Positions 1 through 4,038 of a stretch of DNA of 4,038 bases are shown piece after piece (the stretch's first letter is position 1; each line of letters starts with the position of its first letter). The stretch lies in the IMG/VR virus record IMGVR_UViG_2703719368_000026; one strand, given 5' to 3'. This stretch comes from a virus (taxonomy: Duplodnaviria; Heunggongvirae; Uroviricota; Caudoviricetes). The notes beneath the pieces are model-generated. The model worked only from the letters and a program-made list of their open reading frames with translations. It was not told the DNA's origin and did no database searches. The translations under genes and the position numbers were made by a program.

Positions 1-1119
1 TCAAATAACCAACTTAACCCATTCCTGACCTCGAGTATCGTTATAGCGATCGGTGGTTGCCTGGACTTTATGTCCTAGTAATGTTTTTGTATCGATACCC
101 TGTGCACGGTACAGCCGTTCTGATAGAGAGCGTTGTTCATGAAATGTTGGCGGAGTTTTTCCTGCTGGTGGAATTACCCCAGCCAGATCCCGTGCTTTGG
201 CAAAGTAGTCGCTCAGGTTGTCTTTACTCATCGGCTTCGGTTGTTTCTGGTGCCGACTATGGATTAGATATGGACTTAATATTCTGTCTCGGCACCCATC
301 AATAACTTCTTTTAACGTTATCCCAATGGCATCACAGCGTAGTGTAAGCGGTAACGCCAGACGCATTCCGGTTTTTCCCTGGGTGATATGCAAGTGTTCG
401 TTCCACACATCTGAAAAACGCATGTGGCAAATGTCATCACGGCGCTGACCAGTAACAATCGCAAGAAGCATTGCGTTACGGATAAAGTGTTTTTCAGGCG
501 TTGCATTGTAAATTTTTTGCCAGTCTTCCATGGTGAGCCTGGCTCTGGTTACTTTAGGGATCGGTTTACGGGTAGCCTCCGGAGGATTCCATCCAGGAGG
601 AACTTCCCCTGCATGCTGTGCTTCTTTATAAATATCAACCCATAATCCACGATTTACTCTCGCTGTACTGACCATGTCTTTATCCAGCCACTCATCCAGT
701 ATTAATGCAAAGTCTCTTACTTCCAGTTCTTTCAATGGGTGGTTTCCCAGACGGGAAACCAGGTATGCAGCCATTCGAGTTTTTTCTTTGTGAGTTGTAG
801 CTGCAATATCTCCATTTTTCAGTCGCGTGTCCTGTATTTTCAGATATCGATCAACCCATGCCTTTAATCTGATACCCCGACGTTTTGTTGCTGACGGACT
901 TTCATCAATTTTGCGCATGAAATATTCAGCTTCTGCTGCAGCTATTCGCTGATTGGCTGTGGAAGCGATTTTTTCTGCCTTACCTTTGTCTGTTCCGAGT
1001 CCGTGAAATTTTCCAGTCACAGGATTTTTATACTGGTAGTAAACTCTGCCAGTTCTGCGATCAAACTTTTCGTAAAGACCGGCTACGTCAGTGCTGTTTT
1101 TTCGTGGCCTCGGTGACAT
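1..1119 (-). CDS. int: Tyrosine site-specific recombinase (lambda-family integrase), complete
   Basis: 372-aa ORF. The C-terminal translation carries the lambda Int catalytic pattern (HEQRSLS ... LLGHK ... DRY, matching H-x-L-R / LLGH / nucleophile Tyr). ATG at 1119 is preceded by an AAGGAG Shine-Dalgarno (plus-strand CTCCTT 1131-1136). The start is overlapped by the 3' end of xis, as in lambda. The stop codon is window bases 1-3, so attL/attP core would lie just outside the window. Confidence 0.9.
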   Translation of the reverse strand: MSPRPRKNSTDVAGLYEKFDRRTGRVYYQYKNPVTGKFHGLGTDKGKAEKIASTANQRIAAAEAEYFMRKIDESPSATKRRGIRLKAWVDRYLKIQDTRLKNGDIAATTHKEKTRMAAYLVSRLGNHPLKELEVRDFALILDEWLDKDMVSTARVNRGLWVDIYKEAQHAGEVPPGWNPPEATRKPIPKVTRARLTMEDWQKIYNATPEKHFIRNAMLLAIVTGQRRDDICHMRFSDVWNEHLHITQGKTGMRLALPLTLRCDAIGITLKEVIDGCRDRILSPYLIHSRHQKQPKPMSKDNLSDYFAKARDLAGVIPPAGKTPPTFHEQRSLSERLYRAQGIDTKTLLGHKVQATTDRYNDTRGQEWVKLVI

Positions 1120-1357
1120 GAGTTAAAATCTCCTTCAGTGCATCATCATCGCCAGTATGAATTTCCGGCGCAATTCCCGTTTCACCAGGCCCAACAAATA
1201 CTGCTCGGCGATCTATCAGCCAACGCCCACGAATTTTTTGTGGTCTTGGAACGATGTATCCTAGTTTTCCGTATTTCACCAGGGTAGTGTTTGTTATTGG
1301 GAGACTGAACCGTTTTGGTTTCCACTCGTCGAGCGTTATCAGGTACTGTTCGCTCAT
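1088..1357 (-). CDS. xis: Excisionase (lambda Xis-like)
   Basis: Translation MSEQYLITLDEWKPKRFSL...GRWLIDRRAVFVGP resembles the lambda Xis N-terminus (MYLTLQEW...) and winged-helix core. ATG at 1357 has a GGAG Shine-Dalgarno 8 nt upstream; the ORF track extends 3 codons further to a GTG at 1366. The 3' end overlaps the int start by 32 nt. Confidence 0.75.
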   Translation of the reverse strand: MSEQYLITLDEWKPKRFSLPITNTTLVKYGKLGYIVPRPQKIRGRWLIDRRAVFVGPGETGIAPEIHTGDDDALKEILTHVTEATKKQH

Positions 1358-1441: not shown

Positions 1442-1720
1442 TCAGTTTTTGCCAGATAAGTAACGCCACGGGCAGGGGATCCCCTGCCGTTCGTATGAAC
1501 GGCGCAAAATCGTGTTGTCGAAGTTGGCTCCATTTCCCCAGACCTGAACAAAAAATTCACCGGAGTTTTCGTCGATAAATTCCCGCAATTGTAACAGTGC
1601 ATCATCTAACGGGATTTCATCGGTCATAATGGCAGATTGCGCTTCGCGTGATTGCTTAAGCCACCATTTAATGGTGTCCCTCGCCGTGTGCTTTCGTGTT
1701 GTGTGCCTGCTTTTTACCAC
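1442..1720 (-). CDS. Hypothetical protein in the leftward operon; possible remnant of a larger gene
   Basis: 92-codon ORF beginning with GTG at 1720; first in-frame ATG is at 1627, and no convincing RBS was seen for either. Contains GNGANFD, which weakly resembles the exo II motif (HNAxFD) of DEDD-type 3'-5' exonucleases, but the ORF is too short for a complete domain. An 18-bp perfect palindrome (1471-1488) lies in its 3' end. Coding status uncertain. Confidence 0.35.
   Translation of the reverse strand: MVKSRHTTRKHTARDTIKWWLKQSREAQSAIMTDEIPLDDALLQLREFIDENSGEFFVQVWGNGANFDNTILRRSYERQGIPCPWRYLSGKN
1471..1488. repeat. 18-bp perfect GC-rich palindrome GGCAGGGGATCCCCTGCC
   Basis: Read directly; centred on GGATCC. 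Lies in the 3' end of the 1442..1720 ORF (encodes QGIPCPW). No U-tract on either strand. Confidence 0.7.
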
Positions 1721-1804: not shown

Positions 1805-2320
1805 GTGATCGCTGAATTAACGGCAGCAATGACGGCTATTCGTGAAACCGCCCAGATTGCAAAACTAATGAACGAGGCAAAAACTCAAGCTGAAGTAAAT
1901 GCGGCTATTGGTGAACTGAACTCAAAGCTTGCATCTATTCAGCGCGAATGCGTGTCTCTCGTTGAGCTGGTGGGCACTTATCAAGAAATAAATGCTTCTC
2001 TCAAAGCTAAAATTGCAGAATTTGAAAACTTTGAGGCTCAGACGGAAGGTTATATCCTTAGCCAACTTGAGTCGGGAACTTTTGTGTACTCGAAGGAGGT
2101 AACCGTGAACGGCGGCAGCATAATCATGCATCTTTGTCCAAAATGTTTTGGACAAAAGATAGTATCGATACTTCAGCCATTCCCGGTTAGAGAATATGAA
2201 TTTTTTCATAAAAGCAGGTGCCTGTACTGTAAAAATCAGTTTCTTATGAATAAAAATCCGGATTACGTATCACCTCCATCTATTGAAGAGTTGGCCAGAA
2301 AACTGAACGGCAATCTGTAG
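1805..2320 (+). CDS. Uncharacterised coiled-coil / C4 zinc-ribbon protein (candidate moron or exclusion/defence cargo gene)
   Basis: Long plus-strand ORF convergent with the leftward operon. Most plausible start is GTG 1805 with AAGAG (1792-1796) 8 nt upstream; alternative ATG at 1829. The TTG-initiated extension back to 1652 is rejected. The N-terminal ~100 residues are Ala/Glu/Lys/Gln-rich amphipathic helix; the C-terminus has CPKC-(24 aa)-CLYC. Looks AT-rich by eye relative to flanks, especially the 3' half (not computed). Stop TAG at 2318-2320. Confidence 0.65.
   Translation: MIAELTAAMTAIRETAQIAKLMNEAKTQAEVNAAIGELNSKLASIQRECVSLVELVGTYQEINASLKAKIAEFENFEAQTEGYILSQLESGTFVYSKEVTVNGGSIIMHLCPKCFGQKIVSILQPFPVREYEFFHKSRCLYCKNQFLMNKNPDYVSPPSIEELARKLNGNL
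2133..2156. repeat. Palindrome TTTGTCCAAAA-TG-TTTTGGACAAA inside the cargo ORF (11-bp arms, 2-nt spacer)
   Basis: Read directly. It encodes the LCPKCFGQ zinc-knuckle residues of the 1805..2320 protein. Confidence 0.7.
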
Positions 2321-2434: not shown

Positions 2435-2665
2435 TTAGTCAGAGTTTCTTGCTAACCAGCGACGCGCGCCAGATTCGGTTTTAAACGTTTTGCTTTTGGT
2501 ATACGTCATCGCGGTGAACGTGCCGTCCTGGTTGGGAAACACGCCGCACACCAGAGATTCGTTGTTGCCAAGATCAAGAGTATCCATGCTGACCTCATAT
2601 CCCCTTAACGCCGGGGTAGCGGAACAAAAACCTGCTGCATAGTTAAAGTTGAACCCTGCCGTCAT
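2435..2665 (-). CDS. Small hypothetical protein, first ORF downstream of the P_L-like promoter (YdaF/YdaG-position ORF)
   Basis: 76-codon ORF with ATG at 2665 and a possible GAGG Shine-Dalgarno about 9 nt upstream. An internal ATG at 2587 (also GAGG-preceded) would give a 50-aa product. It sits where Rac carries ydaG/ydaF, but I cannot confirm sequence identity from memory. Not Arg-rich at the N-terminus, so not an obvious N-type antiterminator. Confidence 0.4.
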   Translation of the reverse strand: MTAGFNFNYAAGFCSATPALRGYEVSMDTLDLGNNESLVCGVFPNQDGTFTAMTYTKSKTFKTESGARRWLARNSD

Positions 2666-2765
2666 GTTCTTACGCCTCGGGCTGGCTACTTAATCCCTGA
2701 CCACTGCCGGGTAACTCTAGGTATTGCCCTGTATTGTGTGGGACGGGATGGGTTGGTATGGGAAA

Positions 2766-2794
2766 ACTATAGGAAATGCCTAATTGCTTGTCAA
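2766..2794 (-). promoter_or_regulatory. P_L-like sigma70 promoter for the leftward early operon
   Basis: On the minus strand: -35 TTGACA (plus coordinates 2789-2794), 17-nt spacer, -10 TATAGT (2766-2771). Predicted start near 2759, giving a ~90-nt leader before the ORF at 2665. Embedded in operator half-sites. Confidence 0.6.
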
Positions 2795-2829
2795 TAGGCT
2801 GCGCCTAATGATTTGGGTGCGACCTAATA
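2778..2829. promoter_or_regulatory. O_L-like operator cluster (GCCTAAT/ATTAGGC half-sites)
   Basis: GCCTAAT at 2778-2784 and 2803-2809, CCTAATA at 2823-2829, and TAGGC at 2795-2799. Read on the minus strand this is ATTAGGT-n12-ATTAGGC-gca-GCCTATTGACAA-gca-ATTAGGC-atttcc-TATAGT. Confidence 0.55.
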
Positions 2830-2867
2830 GGTGATGGTTTGTGGGAGAGGTAGTAGGAGTTAACTAA

Positions 2868-2887
2868 CGGGAACTAGGAATTTCCCG
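2868..2887 (-). terminator. Possible weak terminator hairpin downstream of racR
   Basis: CGGGAA (2868-2873) and TTCCCG (2882-2887) form a 6-bp stem with an 8-nt loop, 15 nt after the racR stop. The minus-strand sequence that follows (UUAGUUAACU) is only moderately U-rich, so this is weak. Confidence 0.25.
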
Positions 2888-2902
2888 TCGGACCATATAA
2901 GT

Positions 2903-3379
2903 TTAAGTTCCTGTCTTGGTGATGTTCTGGCTTTTCCGTTTTGATTCTTGATTTTTCAGATAGTTAGCTACCTTCATTTCCATTGCGGCAATGTAGGCAC
3001 GAACGTCATGATCAACCCAACTAGGCTCCGTAGCATTTCCAGATAAGAGGAAAGCCACAATTGCTCTTTTTTCATCAGAGGCGGCTTGATAAAGGCTGTT
3101 TATGTCTAAAAGTTCACTTTTTGTATCTGAAGTGGATGGGGTTGGTATGGGGTATTCGTTAAGCCCCCAATGCTCTGGACCAACCACATCAGAAAAGAAA
3201 CGCCATAGTTCTGGAAGTTTGTCTTTACTTATCGAACCTTTCTTAATCCAGTCATGGATTGATGGTGGTTGGACTTTGAAATGACGTGCGATTTCCGCCT
3301 TTGATTTGACGGCTCCTGATGCAATTTTTTTGTTAATGGCCTGCTCTATCGCTCGGCCTAAGTCTTTACCACTAAGCAT
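2903..3379 (-). CDS. racR: Prophage repressor, RacR-like (Cro/CI-type HTH, no S24 peptidase domain)
   Basis: 158-aa ORF, the same length as E. coli K-12 RacR as I recall it. HTH segment SKAEIARHFKVQPPSIHDWIKKGSI. ATG at 3379 has an AGGAGA Shine-Dalgarno about 10 nt upstream (plus-strand CTCCT 3391-3395). Divergent from ydaS with operator repeats between them. Stop TAA at 2903-2905. Confidence 0.85.
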   Translation of the reverse strand: MLSGKDLGRAIEQAINKKIASGAVKSKAEIARHFKVQPPSIHDWIKKGSISKDKLPELWRFFSDVVGPEHWGLNEYPIPTPSTSDTKSELLDINSLYQAASDEKRAIVAFLLSGNATEPSWVDHDVRAYIAAMEMKVANYLKNQESKRKSQNITKTGT

Positions 3380-3406
3380 TGCTTAATAGTCTCCTATGCG
3401 CATCGC

Positions 3407-3474
3407 ATTAGGCAATACCTACTCTCGAAGCGTTAGGCATAGCCTATTGACAATTGCATTAGGCTAAGCCTAAT
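3407..3474. promoter_or_regulatory. O_R-like operator cluster (ATTAGGC/GCCTAAT half-sites, including 17-bp palindrome ATTAGGC-TAA-GCCTAAT)
   Basis: ATTAGGC at 3407-3413; TTAGGC-ata-GCCTA palindrome at 3433-3446; ATTAGGC-taa-GCCTAAT palindrome at 3458-3474, lying between -35 and -10. The 12-mer GCCTATTGACAA (3442-3453) is identical to the minus-strand 12-mer at P_L. Confidence 0.55.
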
Positions 3475-3476
3475 AT
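3447..3476 (+). promoter_or_regulatory. P_R-like sigma70 promoter for ydaS-ydaT
   Basis: -35 TTGACA at 3447-3452 and -10 TAATAT at 3471-3476 with an 18-nt spacer (or CTAATA with 17). Predicted start near 3483, ahead of the GGAG Shine-Dalgarno and ATG 3504. Confidence 0.6.
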
Positions 3477-3503: not shown

Positions 3504-3827
3504 ATGAAAAAAGATAACTATTCATTCAAACGAGCTTGTGCTGTTGTCGGTGGGCAATCAGCAATGGCTAGGCTTTTAGGTGTATCTCCTCCAAGCGTAA
3601 ATCAATGGATCAAAGGTGTACGTCAGTTGCCTGCTGAGAGATGTCCTGCGATTGAACGAGCAACAAAAGGTGGTGTCCTGTGTGAAGAACTTCGTCCTGA
3701 TGTTGATTGGACATACTTACGACGCTCGTCATGTTATTCGCAGAATATGTCGATGAAGCAACCAAATGACGAAAACGATCATACCCGAAGCATCAAGAGG
3801 CAAATGATTCATGAAAATCAAACATGA
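3504..3827 (+). CDS. ydaS: Cro-like HTH regulator, YdaS family
   Basis: ATG at 3504 with GGAG (3492-3495) 8 nt upstream; the ORF track's GTG at 3483 gives a less likely 7-codon extension. HTH GGQSAMARLLGVSPPSVNQWIKG is typical of YdaS/Cro-like proteins. Transcribed divergently from racR, and its 3' end overlaps the ydaT start by 17 nt. Confidence 0.85.
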   Translation: MKKDNYSFKRACAVVGGQSAMARLLGVSPPSVNQWIKGVRQLPAERCPAIERATKGGVLCEELRPDVDWTYLRRSSCYSQNMSMKQPNDENDHTRSIKRQMIHENQT

Positions 3828-4038
3828 GCACATCCGCATGGCGATGAATGCCTGGGCATATCCTGATGGTGAGAAAGTTCCTGCAGCTGAAATAGCCCGG
3901 ACTTATTTCGAACTGGGGATGACGTTCCCGGAACTGTACGACGACAGCCATCCGGAAGCCCTGGCTCGTAATACCCAGAAAATTTTCCGTTGGCTGGATA
4001 AAGACACCCCTGATGCTGTTGAAAAAATGCAGGCTCTG
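3811..4038 (+). CDS. ydaT: YdaT-like protein (cII-position gene of Rac-type prophages), 5' partial; continues beyond window
   Basis: ATG at 3811 opens a frame running to the window end with no stop: MKIKHEHIRMAMNAWAYPDGEKVPAAEIARTYFELGMTFPELYDDSHPEALARNTQKIFRWLDKDTPDAVEKMQAL. This matches my recollection of the Rac YdaT N-terminus. Not in the supplied ORF track because it has no stop in the window. Confidence 0.8.
   Translation, partial: MKIKHEHIRMAMNAWAYPDGEKVPAAEIARTYFELGMTFPELYDDSHPEALARNTQKIFRWLDKDTPDAVEKMQAL

Follow-up and report, generated by a model that had tools for sequence, protein, structure and literature searches.

Results

Promoters and operator dyads flanking racR

The DNA analysed here, a 4,038-bp window from IMG/VR virus record IMGVR_UViG_2703719368_000026, is the immunity region of a Rac-type lambdoid prophage and carries int, xis, a cargo open reading frame (ORF), the repressor gene racR, ydaS and ydaT. 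It corresponds to the Rac-type prophage arm of many E. coli O157:H7 genomes, with 100% identity save for one 136-bp deletion, and in O157:H7 genomes this arm adjoins potC. RacR is among the few essential transcription factors of E. coli K-12. As in Rac-type immunity regions (Pfam matches and gene order), the Cro-like ydaS and the CII-like ydaT diverge from the neighbouring racR. We consider it very likely that the window holds an ordinary lambdoid O_L/O_R arrangement, in which RacR dyads lie over two outward promoters flanking racR and RacR represses both. The genes, promoters and dyads concerned are as follows.

2903-3379, minus strand: racR, repressor gene, 158 aa (ORF; NCBIfam NF049929; racR in the O157 annotation)
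3504-3827, plus strand: ydaS, Cro analogue, first gene of the P_R operon (Pfam YdaS_toxin 3.8e-30 and P22_Cro 1e-08; annotation)
3811-4038, plus strand: 5' part of ydaT, CII analogue, which leaves the window at its end (Pfam YdaT_toxin 3.7e-05; annotation)
2794..2766, minus strand: predicted promoter P_L, TTGACA-17-TATAGT, 11 of 12 matches (promoter scan)
2789-2794, minus strand: P_L -35 TTGACA, inside the 12-mer at 2788-2799
2766-2771, minus strand: P_L -10 TATAGT (promoter scan)
3447..3476, plus strand: promoter P_R (P_ydaS), TTGACA-18-TAATAT, 10 of 12 matches (promoter scan)
3447-3452, plus strand: P_R -35 TTGACA (promoter scan)
3471-3476, plus strand: P_R -10 TAATAT (promoter scan; PMC9638921)
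2768-2784: O_L1, minus-strand reading ATTAGGC-ATT-TCCTATA, 3 mismatches, over the P_L spacer and -10
2793-2809: O_L2, minus-strand reading ATTAGGC-GCA-GCCTATT, 1 mismatch, overlaps the P_L -35 by 2 bp
2812-2828: candidate weak O_L3, 4 mismatches over the full 17-mer, sole good half-site ATTAGGT on the minus strand at 2822-2828
3371-3387: O_R4, ACTAAGC-ATT-GCTTAAT, 3 mismatches, spans the racR ATG
3407-3423: O_R3, ATTAGGC-AAT-ACCTACT, 2 mismatches, -35 lost
3432-3448: O_R2, GTTAGGC-ATA-GCCTATT, 2 mismatches, overlaps the P_R -35 by 2 bp and includes the start of the 12-mer at 3442-3453
3458-3474: O_R1, ATTAGGC-TAA-GCCTAAT, 0 mismatches, a perfect 17-bp palindrome over the P_R spacer and -10

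A consensus promoter scan of the whole window returned only two sigma-70-like sites, P_L and P_R. P_L lies 109 nt beyond the racR stop codon and fires away from racR, with a predicted transcription start near 2759 on the minus strand. The dyads come from a search for the 17-bp pattern ATTAGGC-N3-GCCTAAT with up to three mismatches, and expected numbers were taken from shuffled sequences (200 shuffles for the ATTAGGC count). Six full dyads were found where 0.12 are expected. ATTAGGC itself occurs five times (0.43 expected; none of the 200 shuffles reached five), every copy falling within 2778-2809 or 3407-3474, and the 12-mer GCCTATTGACAA occurs exactly twice (0.01 expected), at 3442-3453 on the plus strand and at 2788-2799 on the minus strand. 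P_L and P_R share a common layout, in which one dyad ends in GCCTATT with its final TT opening the -35 hexamer and the next dyad covers the spacer and the -10. The two dyads are 25 bp apart from centre to centre at P_L (O_L1 to O_L2) and 26 bp apart at P_R (O_R1 to O_R2). A mirror alignment of the two units extends over ~52 nt with a local score of 23, against a background maximum of 14 in 1038 within-window comparisons. The centre of the candidate O_L3 is 19 bp from that of O_L2, not 25; this site has 3 mismatches in related E. coli-type contigs and appears in none of the other genera examined.

The original prediction, made from the sequence and its ORFs, had proposed mirror-image promoter-operator units built on the shared 12-mer and on ATTAGGC half-sites. 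It placed the plus-strand copy of the 12-mer correctly and the minus-strand copy at 2783-2794, five nt from its actual position. The half-site that it put 3-4 nt past the -35 starts 3 nt (P_L) or 4 nt (P_R) after the 12-mer, and hence 4 or 5 nt after the -35 hexamer. The 17-bp palindrome that it described over the P_R -10 is found at 3458-3474. Its ATTAGGC elements are present too, not as lone half-sites but as full 17-bp dyads, two per promoter plus two more at O_R. Since the dyad search gives six full sites, the half-sites are parts of complete 17-bp operators: the TTAGGC element preceding each -35 and the GCCTATT of the 12-mer together make up a second complete dyad at each promoter (3432-3448 and 2793-2809). 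These had been missed, as had the dyad over the P_L -10 (2768-2784) and those toward and over the racR start (3407-3423 and 3371-3387).

When the motif search was extended to the whole prophage, as had been proposed with that prediction, the 17-mers with up to three mismatches proved to be confined to two clusters flanking racR, both in a 50-kb O157 prophage locus and in the 27-kb K-12 Rac locus; neither locus has a further dyad outside the clusters. No TAGGC-type site occurs anywhere in 1-2777, which bears out the earlier statement that the cargo ORF has no such site nearby.

The right-hand unit and K-12 RacR

The racR product is a RacR equivalog (246.8 bits with NCBIfam NF049929, whose cut-off is 200), and the protein is 92% identical to K-12 RacR. 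Residue 42 (codon 3254-3256) is His here and Tyr in K-12; it falls inside recognition helix alpha-3, residues 38-47 (PMC11014345), and the operators show no accompanying change. At 3388-3393 the leaderless racR promoter has the -10 GAGACT, compared with GAGAAT in K-12.

For K-12 RacR, earlier work has established the ATTAGGC half-site, the operators on the right and the promoter of ydaS. Within the 123 bp between racR and ydaS, Krishnamurthi 2017 reported three variant copies of a GCCTAA/TTAGGC repeat, together with RacR binding by electrophoretic mobility shift assay (EMSA), thermal shift and chromatin immunoprecipitation with quantitative PCR (ChIP-qPCR), and repression of a ydaS reporter (PMC5700373). 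Wisniewska 2022 mapped a single ydaS start by primer extension, with -35 TTGACA and -10 TAATAT, confirmed the -10 by mutagenesis and obtained a DNase I footprint of RacR; in that work the ATTAGGC logo represents the monomer site and the operators take the form WTAGGC-n3-GCCTAW, one lying over the ydaST promoter and one over the racR ATG (PMC9638921). A 2023 follow-up in Nucleic Acids Research counts four inverted repeats (PMC11014345). The racR-ydaS intergenic region of the window likewise holds four repeats of the WTAGGC-n3-GCCTAW type; they match the K-12 sites, and the ydaS promoter and the racR ATG are each covered by one of them. These four O_R dyads lie at -87, -61, -36 and 0 from the racR start, the same positions as in K-12, and O_R4 is "operator 3" of the K-12 paper, in which O3 is given as ACTAAGCATTGCTTAAT (PMC9638921). 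O_R1 is a perfect palindrome in the window; its K-12 equivalent reads GTTAGGC-GTC-GCCTAAT and lies in the region protected at the lowest RacR concentration (PMC9638921). K-12 Rac and the window are alike in repressor family (92%), half-site, P_ydaS hexamers, best operator over P_ydaS, ATG-spanning operator and the four dyad positions. Because the half-site and the P_R unit have been published for the K-12 orthologue with identical dyad positions, neither is new here. The earlier claim that a RacR-like repressor recognises ATTAGGC half-sites and controls ydaS-ydaT is upheld by the equivalog match and by the K-12 EMSA, ChIP-qPCR and DNase I footprint (PMC5700373, PMC9638921).

A left-hand unit over P_L

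The K-12 Rac papers deal with the intergenic region only (PMC5700373, PMC9638921, PMC11014345), and it is the left-hand unit that is added here. Between racR and ydaG, K-12 Rac has a matching O_L unit with dyads TATAGGTAATGCCTAAT and AATAGGCTATGCCTAAT and a TTGACA-17-TATAGT promoter. In the searchable literature no RacR paper mentions O_L, operators on the ydaG/kilR side or looping, and an older account of the leftward promoter may exist. The terms ydaG, ydaF, kilR, sieB and "leftward" are absent from the text of PMC9638921, as is the word "loop" from that of PMC11014345. A letter by Jobling (2018) argues for lambdoid logic and recalls the zygotic induction of recombination genes, giving no sequence-level O_L (PMC5917428). 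As far as the searchable literature goes, the O_L/P_L unit is undescribed, yet it is fully expected.

Downstream of P_L lie the DUF1391 gene, the convergent cargo ORF, an exonuclease remnant, xis and int, and a terminator scan predicts no canonical terminator on the path from P_L to int. The equivalent K-12 genes are ydaG, ydaF, kilR, racC, recET, xis and int. When RacR is lowered by C.Csp231I, ydaC, kilR and ralA rise more than 70-fold and ydaF, ydaG, ydaE and racC about 40-fold (PMC6765115, PMC11014345), and in K-12 transcriptomes ydaG, ydaF, kilR, ydaE, racC, recET and xis/int increase as RacR falls (PMC6765115, PMC11014345, bioRxiv 10.64898/2026.09.06.749655). These transcriptomes and the cross-genus conservation of the operator pair described below lend support to the earlier proposal that the same repressor would also control the leftward promoter.

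From the predicted P_L start to the first ORF, the leader (2588-2760, minus strand) is conserved between the window and K-12 (loci L002, L007, L098, L044 and L113 compared). The leaders of Mixta (L007) and of viral contigs L044 and L113 share a hairpin, GCCCGA...TCGGG, that varies by compensatory changes (CCCGG/CCGGG and CCGAT/ATCGG). Its loop, GGCG-ATGAAG, is conserved, as is the 3' sequence GATGATTCG, and the hairpin has no Rfam match. Hairpin and compensatory changes were read by eye, RNAalifold being uninformative through misalignment. This region could act as a nut- or put-like antitermination element or encode a leader peptide.

Conservation of the O_L pair

Two sets of loci were compared, one chosen by RacR protein similarity alone, which is unbiased, and one chosen on the O2/-35 cassette. 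Among the protein-selected loci, a dyad pair 25 bp apart lies downstream of racR in E. ruysiae, Mixta mediterraneensis, a Pseudomonadota metagenome-assembled genome (MAG), Proteus mirabilis, Escherichia phage vB_EcoS-683R6 and Klebsiella phage KpF5. RacR identity to the window's protein is 64% in Mixta mediterraneensis, 61% in Proteus mirabilis, 58% in the Pseudomonadota MAG and 57% in KpF5. Across 53 distinct racR sequences, 47-100% identical to that of the window and including S24 fusions as well as loci in which a cargo gene separates racR from P_L, the O_L pair is present wherever the flank sufficed, except in L012 and L014; O_L2 is conserved in all protein-selected loci whose flank covers the O_L region, except L012. 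When an alignment of diverse RacR N-terminal domains served as the query in a protein search of viral contigs, the O_L pair was present in 78 of the 79 loci with enough flank among the best 80, all of which are near-identical E. coli-type loci that add no diversity.

Aligned P_L regions share AAAAT-ATTAGGC-n3-GCCTATTGACA-n6-ATTAGGC-n3-RCCTAAT-AT amid unrelated flanks. Column information is high across the half-sites and the -35, whereas both kinds of spacer (N3 and inter-operator) and the flanks score low. In the other genera O_L1 is near-perfect (ATTAGGC-n3-RCCTAAT-AT), and most of their -10 hexamers match the P_R-type TAATAT exactly or differ from it at one base. The cassette TTAGGC-N3-GCCTATTGACA occurs at no fewer than 120 loci in viral contigs, and a RacR-like protein is encoded at 108 of the 120 listed; in contigs with two cassettes, among the matches listed, all 72 of 72 pairs diverge around racR and lie 624-628 bp apart. 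At cassette-selected loci the conservation of O2/-35 follows by construction, and the independent evidence consists of O1, the pairing and the association with racR only. A second strong outward promoter overlain by RacR-type dyads is a conserved property of RacR-type immunity modules.

Two variations on the module accompany this conservation. Klebsiella phage KpF5 (L016, 3649-4803), L010, L017, L025, L032 and others carry a DUF450 gene between racR and P_L/O_L, in the position of rexAB in lambda. Because this gene intervenes, the distance from the racR start to O_L is 1.9 kb in KpF5 and its relatives. The DNA-binding domain of RacR (residues 1-77) is also found fused to a Peptidase_S24 domain (LexA/CI-type autocleavage), which replaces the Rac-type C-terminal domain. 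Such variants are 342-366 aa long in L055, L076, L128, L096, L011 and L013 and 225 aa in L014, and the S24 domain is confirmed by Pfam in L055 (PF00717, 1e-13) and L014. The long fusions with sufficient flank (L055, L076, L096 and L128) keep ATTAGGC operators at both O_R and O_L, so that a version of the same switch that can be cleaved in the SOS response exists.

Weighing the evidence for repression at O_L

Several points weigh against the lambdoid arrangement that we propose. The cassette-selected loci are biased for O2/-35, which leaves the protein-selected loci as the unbiased set. Within that set, L012 (a Nitrosomonas MAG) has no O_L pair within 1338 bp downstream of racR, and L014 (an Aeromonas MAG) has degenerate sites only. 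No O_L pair occurs within 2.5 kb in Pseudomonas phages whose N-terminal domain is 52-55% identical. RacR binding and the start site at O_L/P_L are predicted from sequence for this element and for K-12 alike, and the derepression of leftward genes in K-12 could be indirect, via YdaS/YdaT or excision. In the E. coli lineage O_L1 is a weak site with 3 mismatches, and the -10 TATAGT coincides with its right half-site; speculatively, repression of P_L may therefore be leakier there or need cooperativity with O_L2.

The Pseudomonas phages mark the edge of the RacR operator family. VW-6S (L219) and vB_PaeS-D14H (L220) encode CI repressors with a RacR-like N-terminal domain and keep the ATG-overlapping site ATTAGGCAATGCTTACC. 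In VW-6S the promoter-proximal dyad (O_R1) reads ATAAGGC-ATT-ACCTTAT and the recognition helix is altered (PPSIQGWVKNG), which may reflect a shift in specificity.

Were O_L bound mainly by YdaS or another factor, P_L would be shut off late only and would not be silent in the lysogen. Cro and CI do share operators in lambdoid switches. At O_R, YdaS reportedly represses its own gene and competes with RacR (PMC9638921, PMC11014345), and sharing of O_L is likely. Exclusive use by YdaS is very unlikely, since the O_L half-sites are the same as those that RacR footprints at O_R, and the leftward genes are silent in RacR+ cells without YdaS expression and become derepressed once RacR levels drop.

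The left unit might alternatively be a non-functional relic, a copy of the P_R cassette that arose through duplication or gene conversion. Common ancestry or exchange is indeed shown by the identical 12-mer and by the mirror alignment over 52 nt, and copying between the two sides appears to have occurred. Relatives outside E. coli (L007, L008, L009, L016 and others, compared for the number of O_R dyads) have three O_R dyads, at -60, -35 and 0, of which the -35-bearing one reads TTAGGC-AAT-TCCTATTGAC. The E. coli Rac type has four: the homologue of this O2 dyad, ATTAGGC-AAT-ACCTACTCTC (O_R3), is without its TTGAC -35, and an extra 26-bp unit GTTAGGC-ATA-GCCTATTGACA, of the same type as the O2/-35 unit of P_L, sits between O_R3 and O_R1. 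Exact identity of the 12-mer appears specific to the E. coli Rac lineage, and across the family only CCTATTGAC seems common to both promoters. The match between P_L and P_R would then have arisen because a P_L-like unit was inserted or converted at P_R in the E. coli lineage. A relic does not account for an O_L pair that is kept in genera with unalignable flanks, with substitutions that avoid the half-sites and the -35, nor for its constant place directly upstream of the leftward gene set with an 11/12 promoter, and the K-12 leftward genes respond to loss of RacR. We therefore regard the relic explanation as most improbable.

That the palindromes act as RNA or DNA structures (hairpins or terminators) and not as protein sites can be set aside as having a negligible chance: a terminator scan does flag 3458-3474 followed by ATTATTGTGT as terminator-like, but O_R1 is ruled out as a terminator by its weak stem (7 bp with three G-C pairs only), by its place upstream of the P_R start, so that it is not transcribed from P_R, and by the RacR footprint published for K-12, while the other five dyads are imperfect and conservation tracks half-site identity, with N3 loop changes and mismatches that are not compensatory.

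Other genes and features of the window

The remaining features are the following.

1-1119, minus strand: integrase (ORF and O157 annotation)
1088-1357, minus strand: excisionase (ORF, annotation and profile match)
~1442-1720, minus strand: 3'-5' exonuclease pseudogene, truncated (ORF, annotation and profile match)
1805-2320, plus strand: cargo ORF, 171 aa, GTG start, function unassigned (annotation; phrog_1244)
2435-2587, minus strand: DUF1391 (ydaF-like) gene, first downstream of P_L (Pfam DUF1391 6.6e-30; phrog_751; annotation)
2867-2888, minus strand: hairpin ACGGGAA-n8-TTCCCGT, just past the racR stop codon (read from sequence)

The 136 bp missing from the window fall at 1459/1460, inside the already truncated 3'-5' exonuclease (Rv2179c-like) pseudogene, and are present in otherwise 100%-identical O157:H7 genomes. 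The product of the cargo ORF has no Pfam or NCBIfam family; its sole family match is phrog_1244, with a sub-threshold Pfam match to the coiled-coil-type TMF_TATA_bd (E = 0.0033). Two CxxC pairs were read by eye in its C-terminus. The cargo ORF occupies the sieB position of K-12 Rac. As it converges with P_L, any transcript reading through from P_L would run antisense to it. The DUF1391 product would be 76 aa long if translated from an in-frame ATG at 2665. The racR transcript may end at the hairpin at 2867-2888, which lacks a following T-run and so does not qualify as a canonical terminator; K-12 has ACGGAA..TTCCGT at the equivalent position. An Rfam scan of the window at E <= 1 gave no match, so the palindromes and the P_L leader match no known RNA family.

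In O157 strain ERL04-3476 (L218, NZ_CP032808.1 3283000-3332900) the RacR-controlled element is a ~46-kb lambdoid prophage at potC. The type III effector genes nleA and nleH1-2 are annotated at the far end of this 50-kb locus, which describes their location in the locus only and does not imply that they belong to the prophage.

Discussion

In the mechanism that we propose, RacR dimers would bind the 17-bp dyads ATTAGGC-N3-GCCTAAT (core TAGGC) via the N-terminal helix-turn-helix domain. Paired dyads 25-26 bp apart would sit over RNA polymerase contacts at each outward promoter, and with O2 over the start of the -35 and O1 over the spacer and -10, RacR occupancy would occlude P_R and P_L. Occlusion of P_R would keep ydaS-ydaT and the replication genes silent, and RacR on O_L2 and O_L1 would do the same for the early-left operon of P_L, which would otherwise drive the DUF1391 gene and then, by read-through, the early-left remnant toward xis and int. 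Autoregulation would fall to O_R3 and to O_R4, which spans the racR ATG, both being situated in the promoter region of racR itself. YdaS, as the Cro analogue, probably shares the O_L sites.

This organization resembles O_L/P_L and O_R/P_R of lambda, in which two outward promoters likewise flank the repressor gene and carry tandem 17-bp dyads ~2.4 helical turns apart. Lambda likewise has further operators for repressor autoregulation, Cro and CII (the counterparts of YdaS and YdaT) encoded divergently from the repressor, and an early-left operon leading to recombination functions, kil, xis and int. The differences are that the operator sequence is unrelated, that the C-terminal domain of E. coli-type RacR is not an S24 autopeptidase, that the window has four O_R dyads and two clear O_L dyads whereas lambda has three and three, and that no N/nutL was identified in the window element. 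O_L lies ~0.64-0.69 kb from O_R in the window because only racR lies between them.

Among YdaS/YdaT-type switches, the nearest described case of a second P_R-like promoter beyond the repressor operon is PL933P with OL1-3 of CP-933P, the E. coli O157:H7 prophage with the PaaR2/YdaS switch (Jurenas 2021, PMC8630535). The -35 and -10 of PL933P are identical to those of its P_R, the operators match, the promoter is controlled by the repressor, and PaaR2 octamerises (PMC8630535). CP-933P differs in its repressor, PaaR2, in its operators, which are 18-bp palindromes of the GTTTAGTAA type, and in having a toxin-antitoxin pair in the repressor operon.

K-12 RacR is an octamer by size-exclusion chromatography (151 kDa observed, 148 kDa predicted), and the authors of that work place the octamer on the four O_R repeats (PMC11014345). 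By analogy with lambda CI, the octamer might instead bridge a tetramer on O_L1-O_L2 and a tetramer on O_R1-O_R2, a possibility that we put forward tentatively and think somewhat less probable than its opposite. The adjacent operator pairs at the two loci (25 bp at O_L, 26 bp at O_R) make one tetramer each possible, and O_L and O_R are separated by 639-690 bp in the window and by 0.64-2.3 kb in relatives. Such a bridge would form a loop of ~0.65 kb enclosing racR, or of up to ~2 kb where a cargo gene lies between racR and P_L. It would tighten repression of both lytic promoters and leave O_R3/O_R4 to set racR autoregulation. One DNA-binding domain and operator set with two unrelated C-terminal domains (Rac-type and S24) would then be a natural experiment on the dependence of looping on the oligomerisation domain.

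Conceptually nothing here is new, as the layout is the standard lambdoid one and the half-site and O_R have been published. P_L has little left to drive in this prophage, and the same switch controls a full-size lambdoid prophage in this O157:H7 element. Current RacR models consider the racR-ydaS intergenic region only. The O_L set would widen the direct RacR regulon to the early-left operon, including kilR, recET, the ralR region and xis/int, and would thereby give a direct route from RacR loss to KilR toxicity and prophage excision.

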